Virus record (IMG/VR): IMGVR_UViG_3300001373_000069
DNA from: a virus
Lineage: Duplodnaviria > Heunggongvirae > Uroviricota > Caudoviricetes
Length of the DNA: 64,000 nucleotides
Reading direction: 5' to 3' (one strand)
This document shows, in pieces, positions 3,181 through 38,665 of the stretch (positions are counted from its first letter, which is position 1; each line of letters begins with the position of its first letter). Made by a program: the position numbers and the translations under genes. The notes under the pieces are model-generated. The model was not told where the DNA came from. It saw nothing but the letters and a program-made list of their open reading frames with translations, and made no database searches.

Positions 3181-4238
3181 CAGTTACCTTATACCTTTCA
3201 ATATAAGCCGGACTATCCCTTAATCTTTAAATTTCCAAAAATACCCAAATGCCTTAATAGTTTTACCATTACAGCATCTTATTATACCAGATTGTCTATT
3301 ACTAGGTAATCCAAGTTTAATAATTGCTAATGCAACAGTGTCGAAAGCCTCGACAAATCCATTTTCATCAGATTGAATCACTCCAGGATATTTAGACATA
3401 CCTTTATTAAAAGGTATTCTACCCTTAAGTCTACTCTTTTGTTCTTCTGTAAATAGTCTTCCACTACTAGCTTTAGATAATTTTAGTTTTGTATCTTTAC
3501 TATGCTTCTTACCTTTCATAGGATGTATAGCACCTGGTTTATTCAACCAGTGACCATTTAAACCAACAGACTCTCTCCAACTATCAATTTGATGCTCGGT
3601 ACGTTTTCTACCTAAAGCATTATTTGATAATTTTAACCTAACTATTGACTTATTGGATTCTGATAATCCTGAAAAGGTGTCACCGCCATCTCCTCCCATA
3701 GTCATATTAGTTAAAGAAAACCCCCACTGAATCAATTGACTGATCCAATATATTTCTAATTCATAAGCATCTTGTTTAGTTTCACAACTATCAAGTTCTT
3801 TTATTAGAGGTTCTAATCCTTTGCTTCTTAATGACTTAATCCAAGAGAGACGTTTATTCCATTTTCTAGTTTCTTTTTCAGCCTCATCCAAGTTCTTTAG
3901 ATGACCGTAAAGTCTTTTTGATAAAGACTTCTTAGTATACCCTACATATCTAACCTCATTAGATATAGGGTCTTCAAGTGTATAAATGTAATATGTTTCC
4001 ATAGTACTATTATAGTAAAAACTAGTTGCATAATCATAGATATAATAAAGATTCCCCCATTATAGTCTCTGAACCTTGAACTCTTTAAAGTTCCTTGGCT
4101 GCGGATTATCCAATTCAACATCTTGTTACCATACCATAATGATTAGTTATGCCGCGTATAGTTCGCACTATACGTTTGGTAATGTTGACTTAAGGAAGTC
4201 CCCGCAATTTAGAGGGTTTTATAAGGCCCATAGTATTA
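3181..4238 (-). other. Group I intron (approx. 1058 nt) interrupting the helicase gene, carrying a GIY-YIG HEG
   Basis: The 5' exon ends in U (..gct) followed by an in-frame stop. The intron's 3' terminal base is G. The intron contains a free-standing HEG ORF and GC-richer structured-looking flanks (4003..4235). Confidence 0.6.
3220..4002 (-). CDS. GIY-YIG homing endonuclease (intron-encoded)
   Basis: N-terminal 'YYIYTLEDPISNEVRYVGYTKKSLSKRLYGH' GIY-YIG motif. Confidence 0.85.
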   Translation of the reverse strand: METYYIYTLEDPISNEVRYVGYTKKSLSKRLYGHLKNLDEAEKETRKWNKRLSWIKSLRSKGLEPLIKELDSCETKQDAYELEIYWISQLIQWGFSLTNMTMGGDGGDTFSGLSESNKSIVRLKLSNNALGRKRTEHQIDSWRESVGLNGHWLNKPGAIHPMKGKKHSKDTKLKLSKASSGRLFTEEQKSRLKGRIPFNKGMSKYPGVIQSDENGFVEAFDTVALAIIKLGLPSNRQSGIIRCCNGKTIKAFGYFWKFKD

Positions 4239-5375
4239 AGCCTTGTACAGCGATGTAGCATAGGCATAATCAAACACAGCAAACGACTGTAAGAATTGAT
4301 TGTAGCGGCTCCATTGACCATATTCGGCGGCCTCCTTGTAACGTTGTCTACGAACTATCTCGTAAGCAGTCTGAGCTTCCTCTGTGTTCATCACGACTGG
4401 TATTCCGGTAGCTGTAGTTGGTACATTATCCAGGGCTAGATATGCACATGGTATACCAAAGGGACCTAACTGATAAGCTATCCCAGTAACTACCGAAATC
4501 TGACCATTATGGATTATAGGAGATCTGTTAACTGAAAATCCTCCTCGAGATATGATTATCTCATTTCTTTCGAATTGATGGGAGTTCTTTCCGTATATTC
4601 TCTCTCTTACCCCAGTATTTAAAAGCTCAATAGTCGAGTTCTTATAGGCTAGTATACGAGTATGATTCTTATCGTTACGATTACTAATTATATCATTAGC
4701 GGCCCGATCAACAGTACAATGAATATCATTCATAAATCTATAACCGGTATCACCTCTCATACAATCCTGTCTACCATACTCTTCTTCGAGAATATACTTA
4801 TTGAACGGTAGATCTTTATTGATGTTATCGATCTCTTGTCTAATCCTGACAGCTAATTCACCGATCGGTCCTTCGAATCGTTGCGAAGTAGTCAACTCAG
4901 CATCTATTCTATCAAATTCTTGTTTTACTGGAGGTAATTGAAATGGGTCGCCAACCACAATTAAGTGAATATCACGAATACTAACCTCGTGCAGAATTGC
5001 GTCAACCAGCGGATCATCTATCATTGATGCCTCATCTATCAAAAGAATCTCAGTACCATCAATTTTCATGTTACCGTTCTTATTTCTTTTAAATGAGATT
5101 TCTTCCGAGGAGTCGTCCATTTGCATGCCAAGTAGTTGTGCTATTGTAAAACTAGTTCCAATAGACTGCTTCAATACTTCTTTAGCAGAGTGTGCTATGG
5201 TTCCACCAACTACTTTCCTTTTCTCGTGCTGCAAAGCCTCTTTTAACATAAAAGTCTTACCACTACCAGGAGGCCCCGATAATACAAAGAACTCGTTTGC
5301 TTGAGCAGGTTTACTTAAGAAATCACGGATTCCTTCGGCAGCTACTTTCTGTTCCTGAGTTAATGTTGATATCAT
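4239..5375 (-). CDS. SF1 Dda/RecD-like DNA helicase, 5' exon
   Basis: Walker A 'GPPGSGKT', motif II 'LLIDEASMI', motif III 'VVGDPFQLPPV'; ORF stops abruptly inside motif V (..FDYAYATSLYKA*). Confidence 0.8.
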
Positions 5376-9013: not shown

Positions 9014-10333
9014 CTAGCGACCAAACCCCATCTTTTTAACAGGTTTTTCTTCGTTCATTTTAGGATCATAATCTATATTGTATAGATTAGCTAGAGTGGT
9101 GGGAACCGTTACTCGATCAGACTTACCTAGAGCCTCTAATAATGCATTGGCTCTTTTAACCTCAAGTGGATTAAATGTATATTCAAGTTTTAACCTACCC
9201 TTCCTAAATAAAGCATCATCAAGAGATTCTTGTTTATTAACAGTAGCTATAACCTTGGTCTTTAAAATCTTACCTAAGATACCATCTGATATATTAAGGA
9301 TATTAGTTACAGCACCACCATTAGAGTGATTTCTGGTAAGTAATGCTTCCTCAGCATCTTCAAGCACAAGTATAGAATCTACTAATTGACTAGCAGCAAA
9401 TGTTAAAAAGGATGGATCAGTTAGTACCGAAGCAAATGCAGAAGGGACAAAAACAATCTTCTTACCTAGTTCCTCAGAAATATTGGTTAGATGAATAAGT
9501 AGTGATGTTTTACCCGTTCCAGGCTCACCTTTCAGTAATACCAAACCACTATCATCATTACCTAAGAAATCTATCAATTTTTCATACACATCTGCAAAGT
9601 CTTCGTTGTAGTTATGCTCAATAATATCCTTACCATAAGAACCGTTGGTTAAATAGTGTTTATTAAGAAATAAACCATTTGACGTGGATCCTAGAGTAAA
9701 TACAGCATCTTTAGTCTTGATTTTGACTTCCGGGTATTTGTATTTATCGTAATGTTTAAAAAACTTTTCAATATAAGGGTCTTCAACTGGGGTATAGATG
9801 TGAGATCCAACAATAATTGAAAACTCAGAACTCTTTGTAAAAGCAGCAATCTTTAATGATTTAGATTTATTTAGTCCTTCTTTAACAAGATCTTTTTCAC
9901 TATCATCGATATCTACTTCTTCAAAATCATCCGCATCTTTTATAACTTGGTATACATCATACTCATCAGGAGATAAATAATCACCACCAATTTTGGATTG
10001 CATAGCCATTTTAACTCTATCTTGGTTGGTATCGCCAGTAGAAACCACCAAATTAATGACCCATTTTACGCTTGGAATCACTACAATAGTATTGTTTCTA
10101 ACACTATCAATACACTCAAATATTACATAATAGGGAGTTTCCTCTTCAAATGTAGCGTCTAGGGCTTTGAAAAAATCATCCTTCTTGATATAATCAGTTG
10201 ACCTATAGTCAACAGAGAAATTAGAGGGATTAAATAAATGAGAGTATAGCAATGAAGGACTTGGTGTCTCCCCTTCTTCGGTTAATACTGAAATGGGTAT
10301 CTTACCCACAGATAATTGTTGGTTTTTCCTCAT
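9014..10333 (-). CDS. AAA+ ATPase
   Basis: Walker A 'LLKGEPGTGKTSLL', Walker B 'ILVLEDAEE', 'LDDALFRKGRL' Arg-finger-like. Confidence 0.7.
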   Translation of the reverse strand: MRKNQQLSVGKIPISVLTEEGETPSPSLLYSHLFNPSNFSVDYRSTDYIKKDDFFKALDATFEEETPYYVIFECIDSVRNNTIVVIPSVKWVINLVVSTGDTNQDRVKMAMQSKIGGDYLSPDEYDVYQVIKDADDFEEVDIDDSEKDLVKEGLNKSKSLKIAAFTKSSEFSIIVGSHIYTPVEDPYIEKFFKHYDKYKYPEVKIKTKDAVFTLGSTSNGLFLNKHYLTNGSYGKDIIEHNYNEDFADVYEKLIDFLGNDDSGLVLLKGEPGTGKTSLLIHLTNISEELGKKIVFVPSAFASVLTDPSFLTFAASQLVDSILVLEDAEEALLTRNHSNGGAVTNILNISDGILGKILKTKVIATVNKQESLDDALFRKGRLKLEYTFNPLEVKRANALLEALGKSDRVTVPTTLANLYNIDYDPKMNEEKPVKKMGFGR

Positions 10334-10383: not shown

Positions 10384-11580
10384 CTAAAGTCCTAATTCTT
10401 CAGCTTCAGTAGCAACTTGTTTAGCAAGTTTATTACTGTTAGCAACAGCTTCGGCTTTGTACGTAGCCCACTCAGCGTCTTTCATTGCTGCATATTTAGA
10501 TGAGTGATAGATTCCTTTGTTACGGCCTTCAACAGCGCCAAACACGAAATACTCACGAACACGGATTGCTCCATCGCTAGAATCACTAACATCACAAATT
10601 GCACCAATTTCAGCTGGGTCAACGAAACATTCTAATAATTGGCAATTAAGTCCTTTATAAGATGAAACATAACGCCATCCTCCTACGTGTAATCCTTTTA
10701 CACAATTGGTATAGTCATAGGTATTAACCTGAGACCATTTTTCCAATGTATGTTTCTTACCAACCTGGATAACGTGTCCAGCTACAGTACCAGATAAGAA
10801 TTCATCGCCACCGGTTCCCATTACAGGAGGTTGGAAGAATAATTCTTCAGAAAACTCTGGTAAGGTATCTTTACCTTTAGTGATAACTCCGGTCTGGAAA
10901 TTGATGGTATCATCTTCTTTACCATACAAAGGCATACGTTTTGGTTTATTGGTTTCAGCGTCGATAACCCAACCTTCGGTGATCAGTTGAGCATATTTCT
11001 TAGCCACAACAAGACCTTCCTGGGTGATAGCAACGTCATTGTAAGATGCACGTGCCTTTGCACTTTCGTAAGTGAATCCTTCTTCTTTCATTAAACGAGC
11101 AACTTCTTCGTCATCAATAATGATAGAAGTAATATAATCAGCAAATCTTCCTGCTTTATCGGCAGTAAAATTAGGATTACGCAAGAAACGAATCCATGCC
11201 TTCACGATTGGTGTTGGGTCAATTTCTTTCTCAACTGATTCGAGAATAACTGACACCAATTTAACAGGGACCGGGGTTTTAGAGACTTTCTCCACACCAT
11301 TTTCAACTACCTTCACGAAATAATAACCGGTAGTTGCATTTTTGATCAAATCAGGGCAAGCAGTTGTGATCACATCAACTTCTTTTGTTTCCAGAAGAGC
11401 AGTTGTGGCTTCAACCCAAGCTTCGTATGCGACAGTTTCTTCAATGGTTTCCAGCTCAGTTTGTTTAGCTTTCAAAGAAGTTACTAGTTCTGCACTGAAT
11501 GGTACATTGAACTTTTTACCATTTACTGACCCATTGATCAATTTACCATCTGAGTGGCTTACTACATTAAATGTTAACAT
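10384..11580 (-). CDS. hypothetical protein (398 aa)
   Basis: ORF track. Confidence 0.55.
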   Translation of the reverse strand: MLTFNVVSHSDGKLINGSVNGKKFNVPFSAELVTSLKAKQTELETIEETVAYEAWVEATTALLETKEVDVITTACPDLIKNATTGYYFVKVVENGVEKVSKTPVPVKLVSVILESVEKEIDPTPIVKAWIRFLRNPNFTADKAGRFADYITSIIIDDEEVARLMKEEGFTYESAKARASYNDVAITQEGLVVAKKYAQLITEGWVIDAETNKPKRMPLYGKEDDTINFQTGVITKGKDTLPEFSEELFFQPPVMGTGGDEFLSGTVAGHVIQVGKKHTLEKWSQVNTYDYTNCVKGLHVGGWRYVSSYKGLNCQLLECFVDPAEIGAICDVSDSSDGAIRVREYFVFGAVEGRNKGIYHSSKYAAMKDAEWATYKAEAVANSNKLAKQVATEAEELGL

Positions 11581-11635
11581 AATACTTAAATTTGGATTTT
11601 TTTGACATAGTCTATTTAAGTTATTATAGTTTAAT

Positions 11636-12493
11636 TTACAGATATTTGGACAATATTTGACGACTTTTTTCGTCTTTAAGTTTCTGAAGACCAGATAGTT
11701 TTAACTTTCTTACCTGCTCCGGAGTCATGTCCAACGACTCTCCAACTAGTTTAATCGACGACTTCAGATAATCACCTGAAAACCCAAAGAACGCGCGAAT
11801 TACTTTAACTTCATTTTCTGTTAGTCGAGTAAATACTCTAGCTAAATCAGTATTGAAATCAATTTGATCCATAGGTGAATCGGAACCCGACAACAATAAA
11901 GAATTCTCCATTGGATCATCTTCATCCTCTTCACTTCTAGTTGTCAATATTAACTTTGAGAACATTTTTGGGTTCAATACAAATTCATAGTCTACGTCTT
12001 CCACTTCTCCAATAATATCGGGTAATTCTTTACCGTGCAATTGATCATTATGAAGCTTTTCACGCATTTTCATCTGACTGTTCCGTATGTTCTTTGGTAC
12101 TTTAACAGGTCTATTAAACTGATCTAGGGCCTCTTTCATTTGCCTACTTATACTAACATTGCTATAAGTGACAAATTTGGTGGTAGTTTGAGTTGTATCA
12201 AACTGTTCTATTGCAGCTATTAAACCTATCATACCTTCACTAATAAGATCGGATAGAGGCAATCCTTGTTCTTGGTAATTTTTTGCGATTGAAACCACAT
12301 ATCTACCAAAAGACATTATAATTGCATCTCTAGCATCCATATTCCCATCTCTCCGATACTTGTCTACTAACTCTCTTATAGCAGAATCGTTTGGAAATCT
12401 TGTAGGAGTAAGTTTATCTATATCAGCTATATATAACTTATCTGTCGTATCACGAAGAACCGGAATTATTCTACTATTATAGGATTTCATCAT
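11636..12493 (-). CDS. Sigma-70 family RNA polymerase sigma factor-like protein
   Basis: Region 2-like 'LISEGMIGLIAAIEQFD' and region 4-like 'TPEQVRKLKLSGLQKLK'. Confidence 0.6.
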   Translation of the reverse strand: MMKSYNSRIIPVLRDTTDKLYIADIDKLTPTRFPNDSAIRELVDKYRRDGNMDARDAIIMSFGRYVVSIAKNYQEQGLPLSDLISEGMIGLIAAIEQFDTTQTTTKFVTYSNVSISRQMKEALDQFNRPVKVPKNIRNSQMKMREKLHNDQLHGKELPDIIGEVEDVDYEFVLNPKMFSKLILTTRSEEDEDDPMENSLLLSGSDSPMDQIDFNTDLARVFTRLTENEVKVIRAFFGFSGDYLKSSIKLVGESLDMTPEQVRKLKLSGLQKLKDEKSRQILSKYL

Positions 12494-14574
12494 ACTTTTA
12501 AATCAATATATTCCTTAATCTGAGCGCCTAAAATAAGCTCTTCTGTTTTATCGTAAAAATACTTCCTTGAATACAATTCGATTAAAGCAAGATAATCTTT
12601 AGTCTTACCAAAGAAATCTCTCCAGTAGTTGACTTCGTCAATAAGCAAAATATCAACAGAAGAAATATGATCTACCGTATCACATAGGTAGTCAGGCACA
12701 CTAGAATTGATAATTTTGAGGATATCGGTGGGGTCTTCCATTGATAATATACCTTCAGCACCTAATTGTAGTTGAATACAGTCTCCAAAGAAAACAGTAT
12801 CCATAGTACTTGTATTATAGGCATATGACCTATCAAACCACCCTTTAGTTATTTTAACTAGAGCTACATGTTCATCAGGAAAGATATTCTCTACTACTTC
12901 TGGTAATAGTATTGATTGTGCATTGTACTCGGCAAACAACTTATTAATAACCGACGCGGTTGCAGCAGCTTTAATATCATCTCCGAACACTAACTTACCG
13001 GAATTGGAATCATAAGACTTAACAACAAACTCATTAAGTGTTTTATACTTAGGTGAATTCATAAAATACTTCTCATTATCCTTAGCAATCAATACCATCT
13101 CAATGGGTTTAGCATTAGGGTTGAAGCAAGTGTAATTAGGAACACCGTTATCATCCAAACTATCCTTATCTCCTCTCCAATCATTATGACAAGATAGATA
13201 ACCATGCGGAAACTGATTTGCAATATTCTTCATATCAGACCTGTCATTAGATGTACCGTAGATAACTACTTTAGAAGGATCATAGAGGGATGGGATATTA
13301 CTTATATTGGTATCATAAGCACTGAACACATAGTTATTGTATGACTTATTGATCTTATGAACTACAATTTGAGCATTGGCTTTTCTAATAGCACCTCTAT
13401 CGATAATTGTATTAGAACTATCATCAGGGTCTCCTCCCGAATCAAGTTCACCTGCTAAATAAGCTTCCATAGTATCATCCGGAACTTTAACATCCGAATA
13501 CTTAAGAATCTTAGCAGAAGATAGAACTAGTTTCGCGAATAGATCAGCTTTATAGAACTCATCTTTAGGTTGAATCAACACAAAAGCGCCGACAGTATCA
13601 CTTAAGTACCTATCAACGTACATATCTGCTTTACCTTCGGAAAAATATACCGGAAGTGCAAATGCATCTACTCCAGCAATATTACCGCGCTCAATCTTAT
13701 GAGTATACCTATCGTATATAACACGACGGGCCATCAACTTATTTCCAATCATCTCAATAACTTTAGTAGAATACTCTACTTGTGTATTGAGGGGATATCT
13801 AACGTTAGTAATAGCACTGGCATCAATAATTGACGCTAATCTACCAATAACACTCGAGTTATTACCATTCTTCAACGCAGACATAGTTTGAGCGGCCTTA
13901 ACCATCCATTCCATGTAGTCTGTTTCACTAGACAAACTATCATTAACAAACTTTGCAGCTGTTAGCGATACCCGGTCATAAGCTTCCAGTACAGCTTTAC
14001 GAGTCTTTGGAGACCATACAAGAGCTTCTCTTGACGGAGTAACCTCAACATCGTTTACACTTAATATGAAGCCTACAGCGCCTCGTTTGGGTTCTATTTC
14101 AAGTTCATTAAAAGCAATGAAACCATAATTAATCAAGGCTTTACCTGTACCCAATAGAACGTGTGGCTTGTCATATACAGTGGATTCTGAGATAATAATA
14201 TCATCATCTCTGTATAATTCTTTAGCAGCGATATCTACATTGGTATAGGATAAAGCACCTTGAGCTTTAGTGTATACTTTGATATTAGGAAGGTACATTA
14301 ACTGAGACTGTATAGCCTCAAATAACAACTTCTTATTATGCTTTTTAATTTCAACCTGAACCTCTAACCCATTCTTTTCCGAGGTTTCTTCGTAATAAGC
14401 TATACAATCATCTGTTAACTGTAAATACTCATTTACTTTTCCACCACTTATTTTGGGAGTTACAGGGTCCACTTTGTCTAAATAGACGTCGAATTTGAAC
14501 TTTTTACCATTATATCTGTTGATTACCCTAAAAGAGTCAACATTCAATGATAGAGCTACTTTACTACCTAACAC
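12490..14574 (-). CDS. Large ORF (694 aa, GTG start as reported), candidate downstream exon of the split GHKL/Hsp90-like ATPase gene
   Basis: N-terminal '..VLGSKVALSLNVDSFRVINRYN' aligns loosely with Hsp90 'GFYSAFLVADKVTVITKHN'. The in-frame open frame extends only 3 codons upstream to a TAA that lies next to the repeated 14-mer. Confidence 0.5.
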   Translation of the reverse strand: MLGSKVALSLNVDSFRVINRYNGKKFKFDVYLDKVDPVTPKISGGKVNEYLQLTDDCIAYYEETSEKNGLEVQVEIKKHNKKLLFEAIQSQLMYLPNIKVYTKAQGALSYTNVDIAAKELYRDDDIIISESTVYDKPHVLLGTGKALINYGFIAFNELEIEPKRGAVGFILSVNDVEVTPSREALVWSPKTRKAVLEAYDRVSLTAAKFVNDSLSSETDYMEWMVKAAQTMSALKNGNNSSVIGRLASIIDASAITNVRYPLNTQVEYSTKVIEMIGNKLMARRVIYDRYTHKIERGNIAGVDAFALPVYFSEGKADMYVDRYLSDTVGAFVLIQPKDEFYKADLFAKLVLSSAKILKYSDVKVPDDTMEAYLAGELDSGGDPDDSSNTIIDRGAIRKANAQIVVHKINKSYNNYVFSAYDTNISNIPSLYDPSKVVIYGTSNDRSDMKNIANQFPHGYLSCHNDWRGDKDSLDDNGVPNYTCFNPNAKPIEMVLIAKDNEKYFMNSPKYKTLNEFVVKSYDSNSGKLVFGDDIKAAATASVINKLFAEYNAQSILLPEVVENIFPDEHVALVKITKGWFDRSYAYNTSTMDTVFFGDCIQLQLGAEGILSMEDPTDILKIINSSVPDYLCDTVDHISSVDILLIDEVNYWRDFFGKTKDYLALIELYSRKYFYDKTEELILGAQIKEYIDLKV

Positions 14575-14783
14575 TTTGTTATCTTAAAGGCTCTTTATCC
14601 TTTAATTCTCATACTTTACCATAGTATGATGTTCGGACTATGTCATCACCCTAAACCAGGGTGTCGCGCGCTCGTGTCGTTTTACTGTCCGTTCTGGACT
14701 CCATACGTTAGTCTCTGCTCCTTCAATGCATTCCTGCAAAGCTTGGATCACGATTACCCTTCAAGGGAGGGCTTTCCGTGAGT

Positions 14784-15428
14784 TCACGCGATTTTAATGG
14801 GGCTTAGGATTTCATCGACTAAAGCCTTTTTTCTTTTTAAGTACCATGATGAATCAGAGTATAATAGACCAACCAGTAATTCAACATCAGTTTTTCTACG
14901 CACTCTAAGTACATATATTTTCCCCTGTTGTCTAACTGTTGAATGAATACCATAACTGTTAAAAAAGTCTTGTAGTGGTATTATTTCAGGTTCAGTAATA
15001 CACAAAGTCATATTCCAATATGGTTTTCCATCTGTAATTTGCTTTGAATAACAACCATCGCCATCTATATAACCCCTGATATAATGAATAAATAATTCTT
15101 CAGGTAAATCTAATAATACCGATTTTACACCAATATTAACTAAATCAGTATAAAGCTCTTTATTATAAGACCTCAATACTACCTTGTTATTAAATCGTTC
15201 CTCATTATTCCACACATAACTATCCTCGCTATATGATATATTAAAGAATGGAAATTCACTTTCAAATCGTTTAATAATTTCCTCATCTTTAATACTTAGT
15301 TTTAACTTACTACAACTGCTATATGCAATTTTAGAGTAATGCAAACTACCATCAGCATGAAAGAAACCTAGAAAATATGCTTTAGCTTCTGTGTCAATAT
15401 TCTTAAATTCATCATTATAAGATACCAT
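14784..15428 (-). CDS. LAGLIDADG homing endonuclease
   Basis: 'YFLGFFHADGS' and 'YIRGYIDGDGC' LAGLIDADG motifs. Confidence 0.85.
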   Translation of the reverse strand: MVSYNDEFKNIDTEAKAYFLGFFHADGSLHYSKIAYSSCSKLKLSIKDEEIIKRFESEFPFFNISYSEDSYVWNNEERFNNKVVLRSYNKELYTDLVNIGVKSVLLDLPEELFIHYIRGYIDGDGCYSKQITDGKPYWNMTLCITEPEIIPLQDFFNSYGIHSTVRQQGKIYVLRVRRKTDVELLVGLLYSDSSWYLKRKKALVDEILSPIKIA

Positions 15429-15790
15429 AACTATTTATTTGGATTAATTGTAAAATCGTACCAAATATATTATAGTTAGAAAAATTGATTGTGTTTACCC
15501 CATTTCCCCAAAGCATCTTTATTCGCACGCTTTGTAGAATACATTTTATTATTTATATAGGCTCTTTATCCTATACTTTCTACAATTTATCTTGTTATAG
15601 TTGTAGAGTAGACTATATCTTTAACTTGCAAACCGCAAGCAGTGTCCCGCTTTCGTGGAGAACTTTATAGCTTTGGCTTTACCCAGTAAGCGTCATCTCT
15701 AGTCGTTCGGCATTTACAATTATTTCTAACTGATTTAGCACGGGATTGTCCTCTTCAGGAGTTTCCCCGTTTAACGGAATTTATACTCAA

Positions 15791-16429
15791 CTATTCTATT
15801 AAATTACCTTCTTTGTTGTATACTACCCAATGAAATCCTTTACATGTTGTACTGTTGATAGAAGATCTGATAATATGTGATGCATGATTTAGTCCAAGAT
15901 CTCTGAAAGCTTGATATGGATTGTCATATGTATGCACTAAATTCCATTTAGAATCATATTTCTCGCACTTTCCATACTTACCAGTTCCTCTTCTATTTGT
16001 ATTACCAAGTTGTGCAGTTTTAGAAGATTCACTAATCTTTTTCCATACTTCTTGAGTATGTAAATGAGACTGATCTCTTAATTTTGCTTTAGCAGACATT
16101 TTGGCTTTAGTGGATTTACCAAACCTAAACCCAGTAGTTCCCAGACCAGGATAATCAGCATTATAACCATTACTAACGGTATCTAACAAATTAACCCAAT
16201 AGTACTCCATTTGTAAACAATATTCTGGGGGATAAGTCTCGAGAATCTCAAATCTAAATGATTCCTCTCCGTACTTGTTCCAAGAACGTTGTAAATGATC
16301 ATTATAATGAGTATTTGATCGTAATTTACGTCTGTGATCTGACCATCTAGAACTAAAATATCGTTGAGCTGACCCTACGTACATTTTTCCATTAACAGTA
16401 TTTGTGATAGTATATACACCTGATTTCAT
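15791..16429 (-). CDS. GIY-YIG homing endonuclease
   Basis: 'SGVYTITNTVNGKMYVGSAQRYFSSRWSDHRR'. Confidence 0.85.
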   Translation of the reverse strand: MKSGVYTITNTVNGKMYVGSAQRYFSSRWSDHRRKLRSNTHYNDHLQRSWNKYGEESFRFEILETYPPEYCLQMEYYWVNLLDTVSNGYNADYPGLGTTGFRFGKSTKAKMSAKAKLRDQSHLHTQEVWKKISESSKTAQLGNTNRRGTGKYGKCEKYDSKWNLVHTYDNPYQAFRDLGLNHASHIIRSSINSTTCKGFHWVVYNKEGNLIE

Positions 16430-16475
16430 AATATAAGTATTTGTGTACCTATATTATAGTTAATTAATTTGAATT

Positions 16476-16901
16476 TTACATTTTATTGAGTTGAAAATAG
16501 CCTATAAGTCTCTGTTTACCAAGGCCTACACCATTATCAACAATCCTTAATATATCCTTCGATACACCCTCTTCATAATAAATATGAACTAATGGATCAG
16601 TTGATAGCCATGTTGGATCGAAATAACTAGGATCCCACCCCGACGAATGATAGATGCTATCTTGTTTAGTTACATCGAAGTGGTTCTCTACAGCCGAATC
16701 ACCGCGAATAATTGCGAGAGCAACATCCCGTTCCTTGATTGCATCATAGGCATTGGAAGTCAATTCTCTAATAGTTGATTGAATTGGGAATGCATAAAGA
16801 CCACGTTGAAGGATATCCAAGGCTAACGGCATGCTATCCTGATCGATATTCTTACGAATACCACCTTCTGTCTCTATGAACTTTTGTTCTATTACAGCCA
16901 T
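16476..16901 (-). CDS. GHKL (Hsp90/MORC-like) ATPase N-terminal fragment, candidate 5' exon
   Basis: 'RELTSNAYDA' (Hsp90 'RELISNASDA' N-box) and 'LRIVDNGVGLGKQRLIGYF' (G1 box 'IVDTGIGM..'); the ORF stops right where the G2 box would begin. Confidence 0.6.
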   Translation of the reverse strand: MAVIEQKFIETEGGIRKNIDQDSMPLALDILQRGLYAFPIQSTIRELTSNAYDAIKERDVALAIIRGDSAVENHFDVTKQDSIYHSSGWDPSYFDPTWLSTDPLVHIYYEEGVSKDILRIVDNGVGLGKQRLIGYFQLNKM

Positions 16902-16951: not shown

Positions 16952-17371
16952 TTACTTATAGATTTGGTGAATCGCATCAACGATATCCTTTGCTGGTTTT
17001 AATCCGATACCCAAGAGCTCTTTAACGTTTTTTACAGCCATTAATTTCGTATCTTTTAGATCTCGTACCATATACACCAGTTCATCATTCTCCAAAGCAT
17101 CATTGATTACCTTGGCATACTCTTTGGTTACATCTCCACCTTCTTTAGTATCTGAGTTCGCTATAAGAGAAGCCATAAAGTCATCATTACACTGATTATG
17201 TGTTGGGTAAGTAGCAAACTCCGGATAGAATGAATGCACAGTATGTGGTTCTCCTTTGGGAATAATACTATTACAGTGAGAACAATATTTATTACTACGA
17301 GCCTTGGTACCAACACTCCGAGACTCGTAGTAATCATCTTTTAATAAATAGGCGTGTTTCTTTACCATCAC
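16952..17371 (-). CDS. hypothetical protein with C-terminal segment resembling ribosomal L7/L12 CTD
   Basis: 'MAVKNVKELLGIGLKPAKDIVDAI' vs L7/L12 'VKEALGLGLKEAKDLVE'; N-terminal Cys/His-rich. Confidence 0.4.
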   Translation of the reverse strand: MMVKKHAYLLKDDYYESRSVGTKARSNKYCSHCNSIIPKGEPHTVHSFYPEFATYPTHNQCNDDFMASLIANSDTKEGGDVTKEYAKVINDALENDELVYMVRDLKDTKLMAVKNVKELLGIGLKPAKDIVDAIHQIYK

Positions 17372-31318: not shown

Positions 31319-31463
31319 ATGTACTAGAGGGACTTGAACCCCCGACCCCGCCCTCCCAGGCACGTATACTGTCAGTCTAGTCTCTTGTACTTCAAGACTT
31401 CAAACAACTTATCGTCGACGGTGGTGTTTTAACCACTACTCTAACCAACTGAGCTATAGTACA
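31319..31463 (-). ncRNA. tRNA-like element (145 nt): tRNA-Ile paralogue with ~65-nt insertion between anticodon arm and T-arm, and a non-canonical (6- or 8-nt) anticodon loop
   Basis: Perfect 7-bp acceptor TGTACTA/TAGTACA. D-arm is TAGCTCAGTTGGTTAGAGT. The 24-nt T-arm segment gagggacttgaacccccgaccccg is identical to tRNA-Ile at 36038..36061. Anticodon region is GTGGT-TAAAAC-ACCAC, followed by CGTCGACGATAAG..GGGAGGGC before the T stem. Confidence 0.55.
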
Positions 31464-31467
31464 TTTG

Positions 31468-31540
31468 ATGTGATGGTGGGATTCGAACCCACGGCATACC
31501 CCGGGTTAGGGAGCTGCTCTACCAACTGAGCTACATCACA
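31468..31540 (-). tRNA. tRNA (73 nt), anticodon loop CUAACCC: formal anticodon AAC (Val) with C37; assignment uncertain
   Basis: Acceptor TGTGATG/CATCACA, D-arm TAGCTCAGTTGGTAGAGC, T-arm GTGGGTTCGAATCCCAC. Confidence 0.65.
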
Positions 31541-31550
31541 AACATTATTT

Positions 31551-32429
31551 TTACTTCAAATTGATCATTGGAATACTGCTACCAGTAACCTGAGGTAGAT
31601 GACCATCCCATTGTAGAATTTTCTGATACTCAATAAGAGCAGGAGTAATAGCAGCAGCCTTCAACCTATTAGCTTTAGATTCAGCAGTAGCAGCAATGGT
31701 AAGAGCATCGGCTTCTCCCTGAGCAACAGCAACTTTCTTAGCAGCTTCGGCTTCGGTGGCTCTCAACTCATTCTCACGTTGTTGGGCAATTTGTGTAGCT
31801 TCGATCTTAGAATTAATAGCTTTCTTAACCGATTCCGGTACTTTGATACGACCGATCCAGTAGATTTCTTCAATAATAATTCCAAGAGGCTCACATTGTG
31901 CAATCACATTCTTTTTAATAGTAGACATTAACCCTGTTTTACCTGCTCCATAAATATCAGCTACATCCATAGTGGAAGACGCATTCACAAGAGCATTTCT
32001 AACCATATTCCGCAAATAGATATGAGTAACTTCATCTAATCCTTTCTGATATTTCTGAAAGATTACATCTGCTTTATCCGGTTGTATATGATATGTAATA
32101 CCAAGATCAGCATTTAACTCCAAACCCTGAATATCCTGAAAATTAAAGGACTCATCATTAGGACTACCTTCAGTTGAATCTGATGTCCATACATAGTTCT
32201 GTGTAAACGTTGGAAACGCATATAAAGTGGTATTAATACCAACAGTATAACGCCCTGGAGTCAACTCAACAGTATTAACACCTTTGTTCGAACCGAATTT
32301 GGTTACTTTGACGGCAACCGTACCCGGCTCAACGTCTTTAATTTTACATGACGAAAACATAATTGCCCCAAGTAGGACAAACAAGATAACATTTAATTTA
32401 CTTCTCATTTTAGTACAACTGTTTAACAA
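31551..32429 (-). CDS. SPFH/band-7 (prohibitin/HflK-like) domain lipoprotein
   Basis: Lipobox-like 'MFSSC'; SPFH core and C-terminal coiled region 'AQQRENELRATEAEAAKKVAVAQGEADA'. Confidence 0.65.
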   Translation of the reverse strand: MLNSCTKMRSKLNVILFVLLGAIMFSSCKIKDVEPGTVAVKVTKFGSNKGVNTVELTPGRYTVGINTTLYAFPTFTQNYVWTSDSTEGSPNDESFNFQDIQGLELNADLGITYHIQPDKADVIFQKYQKGLDEVTHIYLRNMVRNALVNASSTMDVADIYGAGKTGLMSTIKKNVIAQCEPLGIIIEEIYWIGRIKVPESVKKAINSKIEATQIAQQRENELRATEAEAAKKVAVAQGEADALTIAATAESKANRLKAAAITPALIEYQKILQWDGHLPQVTGSSIPMINLK

Positions 32430-32607
32430 GTTTGATAATATAACGAATCACAAGAAAAATGATGACTGGCATCACAAATAATGAACCAAGGCCCAGGAAG
32501 ACTACAGTATCTGAATTTGTGCTCATAACAGCAGGAAAAAAGATACCAACATAGAGAAACAAAATGACTATTAATAGACATATTGCTAAATACAATTTTA
32601 ACTTCAT
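32410..32607 (-). CDS. small membrane protein (65 aa)
   Basis: ORF track; two hydrophobic helices. Confidence 0.4.
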   Translation of the reverse strand: MKLKLYLAICLLIVILFLYVGIFFPAVMSTNSDTVVFLGLGSLFVMPVIIFLVIRYIIKLVKQLY

Positions 32608-32709
32608 TTTATATTTGTATTAAATGGTTTCAAGGGAGAAAGGTATCGAGACTCATTTCCGCGACGGTCTCTGTTGGATATCTCCGCTTTCGTATAATAC
32701 CTTTCTTTG

Positions 32710-32781
32710 TGGGGATGATGGGATTCGAACCCAAGCCTCCGAGCTTTTAGACCCGGTATTCAACCGCCGAACTGCGCCCCC
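32710..32781 (-). tRNA. tRNA-like gene (72 nt) with apparent 8-nt anticodon loop UCUAAAAG (contains CUA/UAA triplets); anticodon undetermined
   Basis: Acceptor GGGGGCG/CATCCCC (one mismatch), D-arm GTTC-GGCGGTT-GAAT, anticodon stem CCGGG/CTCGG, T-arm TGGGTTCGAATCCCA. Confidence 0.5.
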
Positions 32782-32786
32782 AACTA

Positions 32787-33380
32787 TTACTCTCCTTGGA
32801 GAATGTTAATTATATCCCAATACGGAACATCCTTTTCCTTACATGCTTGTATTATCTGCTCAGTAGAGTATATTGGTTTATGAGCTCTTACATATGTATC
32901 GCGTGACTCTTTATACCGGAAATACTTCCAGTTAGCAGTATTTCTACCCATTCTAAGACGTATCCATAATTCAAGACTAGTGGTTTCTTTTTCATTCCAC
33001 CCTTCTTTAGGCAATAAAGAATAAATAGGAACATTACAACCAAGAAGATGACAGTCTTCTAAGCGTATATTAATCTCATCGATAAGATGCTTTTCAGCTG
33101 CTTCACGCGAACTAAATACTTCTTTCTCCATACCATCTAAGTCGTATTTACTAACAATGAAATTAGATACTTTACACATAGTATTATATACCCAACAGGT
33201 CTCCCCTTCATGGATATCTACACCATCCACTGATCGTATAGCTACTCTAGAAGCAACTTTTTCCCAAAACTCAGGATATTTCTCTGGTTGTATAGTAAAC
33301 CATTCATTAGTTGTACTGACAATCACCTTACCAAGTTGAGGAGAGCCTGGATACTCTTTCTTTAATTTATAAGATTTCAT
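32787..33380 (-). CDS. hypothetical protein (197 aa)
   Basis: ORF track. Confidence 0.5.
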   Translation of the reverse strand: MKSYKLKKEYPGSPQLGKVIVSTTNEWFTIQPEKYPEFWEKVASRVAIRSVDGVDIHEGETCWVYNTMCKVSNFIVSKYDLDGMEKEVFSSREAAEKHLIDEINIRLEDCHLLGCNVPIYSLLPKEGWNEKETTSLELWIRLRMGRNTANWKYFRYKESRDTYVRAHKPIYSTEQIIQACKEKDVPYWDIINILQGE

Positions 33381-34456
33381 AAACGTCTGATTATTAATTA
33401 CTTAGTGGAGATGGCGGGAATCGCCTTAAAAAATAATTTCGCACAGTTCCATATTTATTATTATAATGCTATTATACATTATAAAACATAAAGATATGAA
33501 AACAATTAATTGTACATGTAACTACTGTAATAAATCTGATGAAGAACACATTAACACATAACCAAACAGTAGAATTTTTACAAGAAATAGCAAAATTAAT
33601 AAATACTTAACTTTCGTTAAGGGTTGGACTATATCATCACCCGTTCTGGGTGTCGGATGCTCTAGGCTCACCTTAGTGTCCTTAGTCTCTGAACCTTCCT
33701 CATTCTTCCATGAGGCTCGGCTGCTGATTGACATGTAAATTAAATAGCGTTCAGTATGTACTGCTTCACTTTAATGGGCTCTACATAGTCCCAACTATTT
33801 AATTTATTTAGCTTTCCAGCAATTCTTCCAATTATTTAACTGAGTATTCCTACTCAGTGGGTCCGATTCCTTTTAAACCCGCGTCCAAACATCCGGTAAT
33901 ATTAGTGCTACTTACGTGCGTAGCTGGAATGACGTCCAGCACCTAGGACCAACTGTTTACAGCTGGAGCTCCACCACCTTATTTTGAGAAAACAAGGAAA
34001 ACAACTTGCTGATTTTCTGTTTCTAGGATCACAGCTACCCAATCGCCATATTAAGCTGCAAGAGCCGTAGCGAAAGACATTACGCGAACGTTGTCCTCTA
34101 TAGTTCGATGGACTACCATCATCTTGCACGGACTAATACCCACTGACAATGCTGTCAAAACCAGTCATCCCCGATTATTATTTCATTCGATATAATCCAT
34201 AACAGAGCCACATAATAACTGAAAATTCAACATCTTTTGTTGTAATTAATTCAACGATAGTTATTAGTGTAATACAGAACATAGCAGGATGTTTTATGAA
34301 TACTTCTTTCATTCGATATCAATTTGAATAAACGACATTGTTAGAAAAGATACACCAGTACAAAATGCAATGACTTTGATTGGTTCAGTAGAGGGATATA
34401 GATCAGGGTGCATAATAGAGAATGCTATGAAAAGCATACCCACAACAATACCCCAT

Positions 34457-34864
34457 CTAACTTTTGTTTTCTTTCGCATTATCTTCGTAGTATTTAATAT
34501 AAAGTGCTTGTTGTCTAATTCCTTCAACAAACCCAGCCATTCTAGCTGCTTTAAAGGATCTCTTTCTGCCTTGGATCATACCATTGGCATCAGCGAGTAA
34601 AAGTACAGCAGCTTTTAATTGTTTAGCGTCTTCACACTGGTTAACAGTTTCATAACCACACATTGATTTGAATCCTTCCACAGCATTAAATCCGTATATA
34701 AGCTCTTCAGCATTACTTACCAAATCTCTACCCCAATTATTTAAAGTATCTTCTGGTTTGGGACTACCATAATCTCTAAGATACTCACCTACATGTTTAA
34801 CAAATGATAACAATGTCACATACCAATGGTGACTACCGATTGGTGAATTAGTACTACTTTCCAT
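34457..34864 (-). CDS. hypothetical protein (135 aa)
   Basis: ORF track. Confidence 0.45.
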   Translation of the reverse strand: MESSTNSPIGSHHWYVTLLSFVKHVGEYLRDYGSPKPEDTLNNWGRDLVSNAEELIYGFNAVEGFKSMCGYETVNQCEDAKQLKAAVLLLADANGMIQGRKRSFKAARMAGFVEGIRQQALYIKYYEDNAKENKS

Positions 34865-34965
34865 ATAATGAATAGTTTAGATTATTAGTAAACAGCCCAC
34901 TTAACACTCGGTATAGATGTATAGGGCTGTAGGCACTGGGATACTATCCCGGTGGGGGATACCGA

Positions 34966-35292
34966 TCATCTCTTTCGAAAGCGATCTTTACGTATAAAGT
35001 CAAAGTGTAGTGTATCACCCACCTTGTACTTAAAATCAATAAACCCGGGAAGATTAATACTATTAAGAGTAGTAATCATACTAGTATCCTGTAGACACTG
35101 AACAATAACAAACGATTCAGGAACAACAAAGTTGTTGACGGGCTTATAATGACCATCTGATACAACAATGCATTTAACATTGTAGTACTTAGGTATACGT
35201 AAGTCTTCTCTTATCTTTAGACCATAGAAAGCAGCTATAAACAAAGCCATAGCAACAAAACACATAGTCATCAGATCATCTAGTTGTCTCAT
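34966..35292 (-). CDS. hypothetical membrane protein (108 aa)
   Basis: N-terminal TM helix 'MTMCFVAMALFIAAFYGL'. Confidence 0.45.
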   Translation of the reverse strand: MRQLDDLMTMCFVAMALFIAAFYGLKIREDLRIPKYYNVKCIVVSDGHYKPVNNFVVPESFVIVQCLQDTSMITTLNSINLPGFIDFKYKVGDTLHFDFIRKDRFRKR

Positions 35293-35312
35293 GAATTTAA
35301 TTTAGAGTTAGA

Positions 35313-35386
35313 GGACACGGAGGGATTCGAACCCACGGTTGTACGGATTTGCAGTCCGTTCCCTTGAGCCGCTCGGGCACATGTCC
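35313..35386 (-). tRNA. tRNA-Cys (GCA)
   Basis: Acceptor GGACATG/CGTGTCC, anticodon stem ACGGA/TCCGT, loop CUGCAAA, T-loop TTCGAAT. Confidence 0.8.
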
Positions 35387-35469
35387 ATTTGTGGCTGGAA
35401 TCAGTTGTACACCCTGTCCAGCGAGACTGTCTATGTGCCTTTCGGCAGAGATTACGACAACACCATTTG

Positions 35470-35543
35470 TAGCGGGAACAGGACTCGAACCTGTGACCTC
35501 CGGGTTATGGGCCCGGCGAGCTGACCAACTGCTCCACCCCGCT
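35470..35543 (-). tRNA. tRNA-Met (CAT), initiator-like (three G-C pairs closing the anticodon stem; close to E. coli tRNA-fMet)
   Basis: AGCGGGGTGGAGCAGTTGGTCAGCTCGCCGGGCCCATAACCCGGAGGTCACAGGTTCGAGTCCTGTTCCCGCTA. Confidence 0.75.
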
Positions 35544-35713
35544 ATTTATCTTTCTGCAACATGATGACATGGTTTCTTATACTTGTACGAATCAAAGATC
35601 TCTTCTTTAAGCTTGTCTGCTTTAATGACATCACCCTTAGACTTTAACTCATTATAAGCTGTCCATCTTTCATCGTCGCTAATGTTTGGTTTCTTTTCTC
35701 TTTTCATTGTATT

Positions 35714-35789
35714 ATTACTAGTAGTGGCAAACGGATTTGAACCGCTGACCTCCGATCACCTCCTGACCGACGCTCTAACCGTTGAGCTA
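35714..35789 (-). tRNA. tRNA-like gene (76 nt) with non-canonical anticodon arm; loop region reads CAGGAGGUGAUC (11-nt perfect Shine-Dalgarno / complement of 16S 3' end GAUCACCUCCU)
   Basis: Acceptor TGTGGTG/TGCCACT (1:72 mismatch), canonical D-arm TAGCTCAACGGTTAGAGC, T-arm AGCGGTTCAAATCCGTT. Only 9-nt-loop (TCGGT/ATCGG) or U33-less 7-nt-loop pairings are possible. Confidence 0.5.
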
Positions 35790-36029
35790 CACCACAATAT
35801 GTCTTTACCTATACAGTTCTAAGCCTGTAATATTAAACCTCAAGGGAACACTGGAATTGACACCAGTTACGCAGATTCCTCCACGATGGACTACCTTAAG
35901 CCTTTTTGATCTAACAACCTCAACAAACAGCGTTCCCTTAGAAGAACTACAAGTTGCGTTTGTAAGTGCTCCGCCGTATGGGTGTCAATCCACCGATCTT
36001 CCTTGTTGCTTGTTTATGGTAGGTAAAAG

Positions 36030-36103
36030 TTGAGAGTGAGGGACTTGAACCCCCGACCCCGAAAGTATCAGTTTCGTGCTCTAACCAACTGAGCTAACTC
36101 TCA
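36030..36103 (-). tRNA. tRNA-Ile (GAT)
   Basis: Acceptor TGAGAGT/ACTCTCA, anticodon stem CGAAA/TTTCG, loop CUGAUAC. Confidence 0.85.
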
Positions 36104-36239
36104 ATACAAACAGGAGACACTTGTTTTTCTCACCTTAGAAGTTTGAATTGCTGTATGTCTCCTTAGTAACAGGGGTCTGTTAACGTGTCAAATTAAAAGT
36201 TTGATGTTTGTTTGCTTGCTGCAAGACCCCTTATTATTT

Positions 36240-36461
36240 TTACATAGCTGGATTTTCTACCCAGCCAGGTTTCAGCTTATCCATTTTGGTTAGCTGACCT
36301 GTGTAATCTTCGTATTTATCCCATTCCCCGGCACAGTGAAACACCACAAAACAATACCCACCCATTACATCAGGTGGCACTGTCTTAACTTTACCATTCT
36401 CGTACTTTTCGGGAGGACAATTAGGATAAGGTTCATAATGAACTAAATCTCCTTTTTTCAT
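36240..36461 (-). CDS. hypothetical protein (73 aa), paralogue of 39597..39857
   Basis: Shared 'GD(L/K)VHY.PY..C...E..NG.VK' and C-terminal 'W(V/E)' motifs. Confidence 0.5.
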   Translation of the reverse strand: MKKGDLVHYEPYPNCPPEKYENGKVKTVPPDVMGGYCFVVFHCAGEWDKYEDYTGQLTKMDKLKPGWVENPAM

Positions 36462-37171: not shown

Positions 37172-37409
37172 ACAATTCCTCCCATTTAAGACTAGCTATA
37201 AGCCAGAAGTTTAATTTCTCAGGAGATGAATCCCATTTAAACCCATTAGCAAGTAATTCACTAGCATGGGTAATATCCATTTCATTACGTATAAGACAGT
37301 TTGCTTCAAACTTATCAAACAAGTCGTTTTCACGTAAGAATAGTTCAAACATTGCTAAGTCAGCCTTATTAACAAACTTAAGCATTCTAGCTCTATACTC
37401 TTCAAACAT
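37155..37409 (-). CDS. hypothetical protein (84 aa)
   Basis: ORF track. Confidence 0.45.
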   Translation of the reverse strand: MFEEYRARMLKFVNKADLAMFELFLRENDLFDKFEANCLIRNEMDITHASELLANGFKWDSSPEKLNFWLIASLKWEELYASRR

Positions 37410-37430
37410 ATGATTTAATTTATTAATTAG

Positions 37431-37502: not shown

Positions 37503-37593
37503 ATGTACCCCACCGAGTCAGTATCCTTCTAAGGGTGGGGTCTCTTGTGTAATTGCGTATTCAGATGTATTTATCTTAAGGCTATCATTTCTT

Positions 37594-38647: not shown

Positions 38648-38665
38648 GTTTATGAAATTTTAATG

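Follow-up and report, generated by a model that had tools for sequence, protein, structure and literature searches.

The locus described here lies in a 64,000-nucleotide (nt) stretch of DNA (hereafter, the window) from IMG/VR record IMGVR_UViG_3300001373_000069, a virus of the class Caudoviricetes. It comprises four minus-strand open reading frames (ORFs), which were all found where a first-pass annotation of the sequence had placed them. These were an ORF of 141 amino acids (aa; 16476..16901) containing the motifs RELTSNAYDA and IVDNGVGL, correctly recognised by that annotation as an N box and a G1 box; an ORF of 212 aa (15791..16429) encoding a GIY-YIG endonuclease; an ORF of 214 aa (14784..15428) encoding a LAGLIDADG endonuclease; and a GTG-initiated ORF of 694 aa (12490..14574). 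As had also been noted, each endonuclease ORF is followed by a non-coding stretch with a higher G+C content (0.41-0.47) than nearby sequence (~0.33), and an identical 14-mer, AGGATAAAGAGCCT, is present in both stretches (minus strand, 15572..15559 and 14601..14588). The locus is very probably one minus-strand rIIA gene interrupted by two independent mobile group I introns, both from the same widespread phage family.

Exon 1 of the reconstructed gene (16485..16901, minus strand, as for all exons and introns below) contributes 139 codons, including the N box (RELTSNAYDA) and the G1 box (DNGVGLG), and ends in CAA CTC AAT. Group I intron 1 (15542..16484, 943 nt), located at site 1, separates it from exon 2 (15497..15541), whose 45 nt encode YSTKRANKDALGKWG, which covers the ATP-lid stretch plus the N-terminal half of the G2 box. 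Group I intron 2 (14572..15496, 925 nt), located at site 2, is followed by exon 3 (12490..14571, 693 codons plus the stop), which opens with TTA GGT AGT AAA (LGSK), the remaining half of that box. The predicted splice junctions are 16485^16484, 15542^15541, 15497^15496 and 14572^14571 (^ marks a junction throughout). The 3′ boundary of exon 1 was set by the P1 pairing ACUCAAU/GUUGAGU together with homologue continuity (GYFQLN^YS), and the tblastn alignment segments of relatives are interrupted at residue 139. Both junctions are in codon phase 0, and joining exons 1, 2 and 3 in silico yields a single uninterrupted frame of 847 codons. Exon 2, which contains the invariant residues S141, K143, R144, G151 and G154, lacks a start codon. 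The GTG ‘start’ of the 694-aa ORF (14574..14572) corresponds to the last three bases of intron 2 and is preceded by just three sense codons (GAT AAC AAA) after an in-frame TAA, the latter having already been pointed out. The first-pass annotation had expected the G2 box right at the end of the 141-aa ORF; instead, this box is cut by intron 2 (GKWG^LGSK), the 45-nt exon 2 having been overlooked. Its suggestion of twin introns was right in that there are two introns; they do not form a twintron, as a 45-nt exon with conserved residues lies between them and each occurs alone in relatives.

Among 5.8 billion proteins searched, 75 relatives were found, more than 40 of them uninterrupted and ~850 aa long. 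The predicted spliced product aligned without gaps across both junctions to these >40 uninterrupted homologues. The closest homologue, P0002 (848 aa, 80% identity), reads GKQRLVGYFQLNYSSKRANKDALGKWGLGSKVALSLNVDSF across the junctions (core part GYFQLNYSSKRANKDALGKWGLGSKVALSL), compared to GKQRLIGYFQLN^YSTKRANKDALGKWG^LGSKVALSLNVDSF in the spliced product, in which the residues at the junctions are GYFQLN^YSTKRANKDALGKWG^LGSKVALSL. The product of exon 2 matches YSSKRANKDALGKWG in uninterrupted homologues. Other database entries are fragments arising from the same interruptions, with P0004 and P0011 starting at VLGSK, P0029 at MYSSKR and P0053 at MGSKV. P0054 and P0059 were considered as evidence of further insertion sites and rejected, since tblastn identified both as site-2 interruptions for which the gene caller had picked a late start codon.

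By sequence family, the host gene is best assigned to rIIA and not to the Hsp90 chaperones. All PHROGs matched by the host gene (612, 3661, 2979 and 38678) are RIIA families, the best being 612 (E = 1.8e-21), and tblastn matches in 97 phage records corresponded to annotated rIIA genes (~24% identity over 43% of the length). A rIIB-like gene is found downstream (10384..11580; match to the PHROG RIIB C-terminus, E = 7.9e-7). Between the two lies a sigma-70-like gene with regions 2 and 4 (11636..12493, minus strand), overlapping the rIIA stop by 4 nt, and this rIIA/sigma-70-like/rIIB-like synteny is conserved in the related loci L002, L003 and L204-L207. Pfam analysis of the spliced product detected only HATPase_c_3 (31 bits, cut-off 25), and no HSP90 family was found in the host protein at E <= 0.1. 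The N box, G1 and G2 motifs of GHKL (Bergerat-fold) proteins are all invariant. The N-terminal and middle domains have a GHKL fold similar to Hsp90 and MORC, a likeness at fold level only. Profile matches to GHKL proteins in the PDB were weak (E = 5e-4 to 0.04) and restricted to residues 25-176, and those to Hsp90 chains (E = 0.015-0.04) were restricted to the N-domain. Thus, the Hsp90/MORC resemblance originally proposed holds for the fold, reaching into the middle domain at 11-13% identity (Hsp90/GRP94/TRAP1, MORC and SMCHD1), and does not extend to a chaperone, given the assignment to rIIA (PHROG 612, tblastn) and no sign of chaperone function. Published work presents rIIA as a protein whose N-terminal part is a GHKL ATPase and whose C-terminal part is variable (PMC7824862). 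The ATP lid, where conservation in the protein is highest, is a low-confidence loop (residues 136-158) that links the G1 helix to the G2 box and is flanked by site 1 (N139^Y140) and site 2 (G154^L155).

Both non-coding stretches scored above the gathering cut-off (50 bits) of the Rfam group I intron model RF00028. For intron 1 the match (53.9 bits) spans 15580..15842. The intron begins with AAAAUGUAA, with an in-frame stop two codons past the 5′ splice site, and ends with AAUAAAAUG, its terminal G at 15542. Its internal guide (15785..15798, minus strand) consists of UAGAAUA (P10) then GUUGAGU (P1). GUUGAGU pairs with ACUCAAU of exon 1, forming a G·U at the splice site, and UAGAAUA pairs with UAUUCUA of exon 2, located directly after G15542. 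The ribozyme core (15556..15779, minus strand) comprises P3 (15779-74/15650-45), P4 (15770-65/15745-40), P5 (15760-57/15752-49), P6a (15732-27/15722-17), P7 (15704-00/15615-11), a P7.1-7.2 insert (15699-15651), P8 (15639-35/15629-25), P9 (15606-01/15585-80) and P9.1 (15575-70/15561-56), the last of which holds the 14-mer. A 10-nt direct repeat, AATAAAATGT, spans both intron 1 junctions (16487..16468 and 15550..15531, minus strand) with a 6-nt offset and is probably coincidental. Alternative splice sites and a target duplication were both rejected as readings of it: the alternative 3′ site would have no terminal G, and L003, L006 and L256 lack the repeat.

The Rfam match for intron 2 (56 bits) spans 14608..14867. 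This intron starts with AAACAC, with an in-frame UAA (15478..15476) six codons past the 5′ splice site, and ends with AACAAAGUG, its terminal G at 14572. The guide (14796..14808, minus strand) consists of CCUAA (P10) then GCCCCAUU (P1), the latter pairing with AAUGGGGU of exon 2 with a G·U at the splice site and the former with UUAGG of exon 3, directly after G14572. An identical guide occurs in L001 and L002. The core (14585..14791, minus strand) contains P3 (14791-85/14670-64), P4 (about 14780-76/14753-49), P7 (14713-09/14640-36), P8 (14663-57/14653-47) and P9.1 (14604-599/14590-85, again holding the 14-mer), as well as P5, P6/P6a, a P7.1-7.2 insert and P9. Compensatory changes between the window and L002 were seen in P6a, P8, P9 and P9.1. 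Together, the Rfam scores, the P1/P10 guides and the continuity of homologues across both junctions bear out the earlier proposal that an ATPase gene is split by two endonuclease-bearing introns.

In both introns the endonuclease ORF occupies the P1 loop, so that the guide comes only where the ORF ends, ~700-880 nt after the 5′ splice site. In intron 1 the last codons and stop of the GIY-YIG ORF overlap the guide; in intron 2 the 3′ end of the LAGLIDADG ORF overlaps the guide and the 5′ strand of P3. No P2, a helix that IA2 introns possess, was found in either intron, as only 5 nt separate the guide from P3. In both, the 5′ strand of P7 is separated from the 3′ strand of P3 by a structured insert of 38-49 nt (P7.1/P7.2), which points tentatively to subgroup IA.

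The 14-mer sits in a 43-nt stretch with 72% similarity between the introns, and by our own estimate the chance expectation for an exact 14-mer common to two ~250-nt stretches is ~2e-4. In an alignment of 37 family members, it forms the loop and closing pairs of a P9.1 hairpin located after P9. The P9.1 stem shows compensated variation, and a conserved GAUAACA...G tail comes after it. Corresponding as it does to the P9.1 hairpin of a phage intron family, the 14-mer was ruled out as a splice-site or target duplication. The pattern ATAGTC-N25-55-GGATAAAGAGCC matched >119 IMG/VR contigs, and a profile built from six rIIA intron cores gave 186 matches in the fetched loci; exact scans of IMG/VR for two core segments gave no match. 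Applied to the same 37-member alignment, RNAalifold recovered P3, P4, P5, P6, P6a, P8 and P9.1, with compensatory double changes in 32/36 pairs. A hand-built structure combining these helices with the P7 pseudoknot, P7.2 and P9 was then compared to controls. The proportion of cells paired was 89.3%, compared to 66.6% in shuffles and 30-42% in slid controls, and the covariation score was 0.558, compared to 0.171 and 0.07-0.13, respectively. Double changes occurred in 42 of the 52 pairs, and none of the 500 shuffles matched any observed measure. P7 (GACUA/UAGUC) was invariant in 37/37 members. In the MAFFT alignment, which shifts P7.1 by one column between subtypes, P7.2 was paired in only 55% of cells.

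About ten of the 45 distinct full-length family cores share the ORF-in-P1-loop layout and the rest are ORF-less, with ORF-less copies occurring in genes such as psbA, DNA polymerase and capsid. Members with the P9.1 GGAUAAAGAGCC signature were located in a psbA (D1) gene (L111, 10193..10399) and in a DNA polymerase gene (L193, 3460..3704), demonstrating that the family spans very different phages and host genes. Three or four ORF-less family introns occur in tandem within single genes of L178 (3089..4979), L088 (148..1763) and L099 (1319..2337), scoring 62-92 bits each in Rfam and separated by exons of ~100-300 nt; the L178 gene is capsid-like. A gene other than rIIA, lying downstream of the rIIB-like gene in L206 (8445..9543), holds a further LAGLIDADG ORF (323 aa) and, after it, a partial family core (9407..9543).

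We further investigated the occurrence of the two introns in relatives, which are found on 160-180-kb contigs, one of them circular at 167 kb. A megablast of positions 9000-21000 against 50,697 phage records gave no match, showing no close sequenced relative there. Insertion-free homologues were identified, as neither intron is present in L204, in L005 or, apart from those named below, in the other IMG/VR and metagenome rIIA loci screened. Introns homologous to intron 1 occupy the same site without intron 2 in L003/L004 (329 nt, ORF-less), L224 (~254 nt, ORF-less) and L006 (GIY-YIG ORF). L256 also has a GIY-YIG intron at site 1, its contig ending before site 2. The L006 intron scored 81.9 bits in Rfam, and the L006 rIIA is only 35% identical to that of the window. 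Site 2 alone is occupied by a LAGLIDADG-encoding intron in L001, L002 and L216, with homologous LAGLIDADG ORFs in L205 and L207, and is also occupied in L206 (ORF-less) and L214. Both introns were found together only in the window, among the loci screened.

The insertion point at site 2 and the guides at both sites vary across these loci. Site-2 introns of relatives lie at the same codon boundary or, among L205-L207, L214 and L216, 1 nt downstream; in L205-L207 the intron is 1 nt further downstream, after GGT-T, in phase 1. Guide and exon form a compensatory pair at site 2 between L205 (UUUGGUU/GACCAAA) and L206 (UUUGGAU/GUCCAAA), and the L207 guide also co-varies. At site 1, exon and guide co-vary in L003 (AUUGAAU/GUUCAAU), L224 (ACUCGCU/GGUGAGU) and L006 (ACUUGAAU/GUUCAAGT, with the guide also given as GUUCAAGU). 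The upstream exon ends in T in all intron-bearing alleles, whilst the intron-free L204 and L005 have AAC at site 1. Intron 2 was 94.2% identical between the window and L001, compared to 83.3% and 74.8% for the flanking exons, and 80.1% identical between the window and L002, compared to 74.2% and 62.6%. This greater conservation of the intron relative to its exons fits lateral spread by homing and indicates, at the level of sequence, that intron 2 is mobile.

The identification of the two middle ORFs as GIY-YIG and LAGLIDADG enzymes was supported by Pfam. The GIY-YIG ORF matched PF01541 (E = 1.7e-10; 41.5 bits, cut-off 22.6), PHROG 314, a homing endonuclease family (E = 2e-30), and the I-TevI catalytic domain (1mk0/1ln0, E = 1.9e-16 over residues 1-91), and is 49% identical to the ORF of the L006 site-1 intron. 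The LAGLIDADG ORF matched LAGLIDADG_3 (PF14528, E = 9e-8; 32.7 bits, cut-off 22.5) and PHROG 4645 (E = 1.8e-31), contains the motifs YFLGFFHADGS and IRGYIDGDG, and showed a weak match to the I-DmoI/I-CreI chimera 1mow (E = 0.0012). It is 96% identical to the L001 ORF and 79% identical to the L002 ORF.

Sequence elements upstream of these ORFs are also shared. The ACUAUAAUAUA motif is common to both introns and to the third endonuclease gene of the window. In intron 1 it (16461..16450) forms the 5′ arm of a hairpin (16427..16458, minus strand; minimum free energy (MFE) -10.5 kcal/mol, z -3.87), the 3′ arm of which contains the AUG of the GIY-YIG ORF. Similarly, in intron 2 the motif (15477..15466) is part of the 5′ arm of a hairpin (15424..15476, minus strand; MFE -10.6 kcal/mol, z -2.40) whose 3′ arm reaches the AUG of the LAGLIDADG ORF, and L001 has the same fold as intron 2 (z -1.27). 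Across the minimum-energy folds of introns with this motif-AUG pairing, z was -3.9, -2.4, -4.5 and -1.3, and in L256 a compensatory A-U to G-C change falls within the hairpin stem. Each endonuclease ORF in this phage clade (window, L001, L002, L205 and L207) is preceded, 12-45 nt before its ATG, by the element ACTATAATA, which is absent from the endonuclease ORFs that the same intron family carries in unrelated phages. Each of its five sites in the window (16460..16452, 15476..15468, 4016..4008 and 11630..11622, minus strand; 53552..53560, plus strand) is sense-oriented relative to an ORF that starts 12-120 nt further on, these ORFs being three endonuclease genes, the rIIB-like gene and ORF 53678. 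ACTATAATA may be a clade-specific promoter element. The 12-mer AACTATAATATA was rejected as a general promoter, given that it is confined to the two introns, the 9-mer count was not significant and a sigma-70 scan showed no enrichment.

These features suggest how the locus may be expressed. Transcription would proceed through the whole locus, in which no terminator-like sites were found inside the introns on the minus strand, and each ribozyme would then fold. Free guanosine would attack after the terminal U of the upstream exon, the terminal G (15542 or 14572) would dock and the exons would be ligated. The resulting junctions, CUCAAU^UAUUCU and GGGGU^UUAGGU, would give an 847-aa rIIA with an intact ATP lid and G2 box. 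In the unspliced precursor, ribosomes that translate out of the exon should stop at the in-frame stop codons located two (intron 1) and six (intron 2) codons past the 5′ splice site, an arrangement common in phage introns (PMC3984707), and the hairpin would bury the AUG of each endonuclease. ACTATAATA, upstream of each endonuclease ORF, may serve as that ORF's own promoter. In T4, I-TevI is regulated by a hairpin that buries its start codon and by an internal promoter. By analogy, we hypothesise that the endonucleases are translationally repressed in the read-through precursor and may each be expressed from a promoter of their own. During co-infection, the conserved ATP-lid/G2-box codons of intron-free rIIA would be where the GIY-YIG and LAGLIDADG enzymes cut, and repair of the cut allele would copy the intron in, i.e. 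homing. Splicing, endonuclease cleavage and regulation are thus all predictions drawn from the sequence.

Several observations weigh against a gene interrupted by two active introns. The Rfam scores barely exceed the threshold, and the P1/P2 part of the model was forced onto ORF sequence. At the gathering threshold Rfam detected no intron in L003 or L205-L207, though nhmmer with the six rIIA intron cores did find them (L207, E = 6e-40), which points to insensitivity of the Rfam model or its filters here rather than to a different element. The failure to find P2, together with the short P5, means that efficient splicing, itself a prediction, might need a protein cofactor. Part of the excess identity of intron 2 over its exons could stem from constraint acting on the ribozyme and the ORF, and not from recent transfer. 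With regard to expression, the count of ACTATAATA (5 versus 2.1 expected) was not significant, as 9/100 shuffles also reached 5, and a generic sigma-70 scan showed no enrichment.

Some phage genes are reported to be split by mob/seg-type endonucleases into pieces that are separately translated and assemble without splicing. Were rIIA of this kind, fragmented by free-standing endonuclease genes into subunits, one would expect what gene callers in protein databases indeed report, namely separate fragments (141/170 aa and 694/696 aa), the larger with a 5′ GTG. However, this GTG forms the 3′ end of a sequence that bears all group I hallmarks, and the 15-aa exon 2, which lacks a start codon, holds five invariant ATP-site residues. 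Covarying ribozyme cores follow each endonuclease ORF, and the guides match the exon ends and co-vary with them. In addition, the ORF-less insertions at the same sites in L003, L206 and L224 cannot be free-standing endonuclease genes. We therefore consider a split gene of this type extremely improbable. It also appears very unlikely, if marginally less so, that one or both introns are splicing-defective relics within an rIIA pseudogene heading for loss. The marginal Rfam scores, the failure to find P2 and the fact that no other allele was found to carry both introns are compatible with decay, and in T4 rIIA is dispensable in many conditions. On the other hand, the three exons are intact, in frame and retain every invariant residue, both endonuclease ORFs are intact, and core helices, guides and terminal G are preserved in both introns; moreover, intron 2 is 94% identical to the L001 copy, which shows no decay.

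Splicing that needs protein help, either from the LAGLIDADG protein acting as a maturase or from a host or phage RNA chaperone, such that the introns are not truly self-splicing, is unlikely and yet deserves more weight than either of these. It would agree with the compact core, the very large P1 loop and the lack of a detected P2. LAGLIDADG maturases are known, one bacterial case being cited in PMC3984707, and PMC11878797 reports that 4/8 spliced Bastillevirinae introns did so only in infected cells. Conversely, family members at the same sites are ORF-less (L003, L206 and L224), as are many copies in other genes. Furthermore, the enzyme of intron 1 belongs to the GIY-YIG class, whose members are not known to act as maturases. 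An intein was rejected because every frame between the exons is closed by stops and the endonucleases are separate ORFs. Two mobile group I introns in one rIIA gene thus remain the preferred explanation. As these bracket the 15 ATP-lid codons in phase 0, an active rIIA requires two separate splicing reactions. It is conceivable, and we regard it as quite improbable, that these two steps form a timing or conditional switch, with exon 1-exon 3 joining producing an in-frame, lid-less and ATPase-dead rIIA with a distinct role; in a milder variant, ACTATAATA plus the AUG-burying hairpin could be a portable cassette for expression, through which endonuclease genes of unrelated types (GIY-YIG and LAGLIDADG) are exchanged in the same P1 loop of sibling introns within this clade.

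In comparison to the mobile introns of T4 (td/I-TevI, nrdD-sunY/I-TevII and nrdB; subgroup IA2), those of the window share a group I core with a probable P7.1/P7.2 extension in a conserved coding gene, an in-frame stop soon after the 5′ splice site and, for the GIY-YIG enzyme, the I-TevI type of catalytic domain (E = 1.9e-16). They differ in their host gene, rIIA being intron-less in T4 and in every annotated rIIA retrieved, in having ORFs in the P1 loop that overlap the guide, in the lack of a detected P2 and in the location of two introns 45 nt apart. T4 intron ORFs sit in P6 or P9 loops. Relative to the rIIA of T4-like phages and Felixounavirus, the window gene shares PHROG 612, HATPase_c_3, the N, G1 and G2 boxes, a downstream rIIB-like gene and the architecture given in PMC7824862, whereas its sequence is very divergent, a sigma-70-like gene precedes the rIIB-like gene and introns are present.

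Related introns separated by short exons also occur in other multi-intron phage genes, including Twort orf142 (three introns) and nrdE (two; the Twort example cited in PMC3984707), and in Bastillevirinae and Zeta/Delta crAss-like phages. For Bastillevirinae, PMC11878797 gives 45 introns in 37 genes, and crAss-like phages of 145-192 kb contain up to 14 introns per genome, including a capsid gene in five fragments (PMC7886860). The arrangement is therefore less unusual than the first-pass annotation supposed, since intron-dense genes are known in large Bacteroidota phages (PMC7886860) and recur in the fetched loci. rIIA is nevertheless not among the host genes in these papers (capsid protein, PolB, primase, terminase, nrd and DNA polymerase), and the sibling introns of the window carry endonucleases of two unrelated families. 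Like the I-DmoI-like LAGLIDADG introns of organelles, archaea and bacteria, intron 2 combines two motifs in a ~210-aa chain with a group I intron and a conserved target; in contrast, its host is a phage and similarity to solved enzymes is low. The usual endonucleases of phage group I introns, as listed in PMC3984707, are GIY-YIG, HNH, PD-(D/E)xK and EDxHD, a list that does not include LAGLIDADG.

At least four group I introns were found in the 64 kb of the window. The third (4022..4248, minus strand, Rfam 52.2 bits) lies at the end of a Dda-like helicase ORF (4236..5375; PHROG 325, E = 1e-56), with its GIY-YIG ORF (3220..4002, 260 aa) downstream of the core and not in the P1 loop. The fourth (33605..33884, minus strand) has the best Rfam score in the window (76.3 bits) and adjoins a tRNA array in a region without a long ORF. 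tRNA genes extend over 31319..43098 (minus strand) and 62617..63728 (plus strand), numbering 15 by ARAGORN and ~17 by Rfam. One Rfam tRNA match is 145 nt long (31319..31463), suggesting an insertion or intron, and one ARAGORN tRNA (32709..32781) has a 2-nt anticodon. A full-length Hatchet ribozyme (RF02678) was detected at 49859..49997 (minus strand; 77.2 bits, cut-off 51). Just upstream of rIIA, a 139-aa ORF (16952..17371, minus strand) showed a C-terminal match to the ribosomal protein L7/L12 C-terminal domain (25.6 bits, below the cut-off of 25.9), and this match is conserved in L204. In relatives, a NAD-salvage cluster (NAMPT/NAPRTase, a cytidylyltransferase-like NMNAT candidate and NUDIX) lies a few kb upstream of rIIA (L003, 1550..4968; L204, 1..2769; L002, 626..4115). 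The window terminase is 24-28% identical to those of crAss-like phages; this distant likeness and an apparent absence of Shine-Dalgarno sequences are the sole basis for the idea of a Bacteroidota host.

Finally, we found no report of an intron in rIIA in the searchable literature, the coverage of which is incomplete. The locus is a new example of a well-known selfish element and not a new kind of system, leaving the understanding of group I introns and of rIIA unchanged. The 141-aa and 694-aa fragments produced by gene callers sit in public collections (P0001, P0004, P0011, P0029, P0053, P0054 and P0059), and annotation that allows for introns would mend rIIA as well as other genes of this uncultivated large-phage lineage. 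Screens relying on Rfam only will undercount this intron family. As a pair of endonucleases with a defined conserved target, the two enzymes are possible site-specific nuclease reagents. Homing endonucleases target the most conserved codons. The ATP-lid/G2-box codons fit this pattern as a homing hot spot. Two endonuclease families and no fewer than two ribozyme lineages use them; the two sites are separated by 45 nt, and the site-2 insertion points of different phages differ by 1 nt. rIIA joins the phage genes colonised by mobile group I introns.

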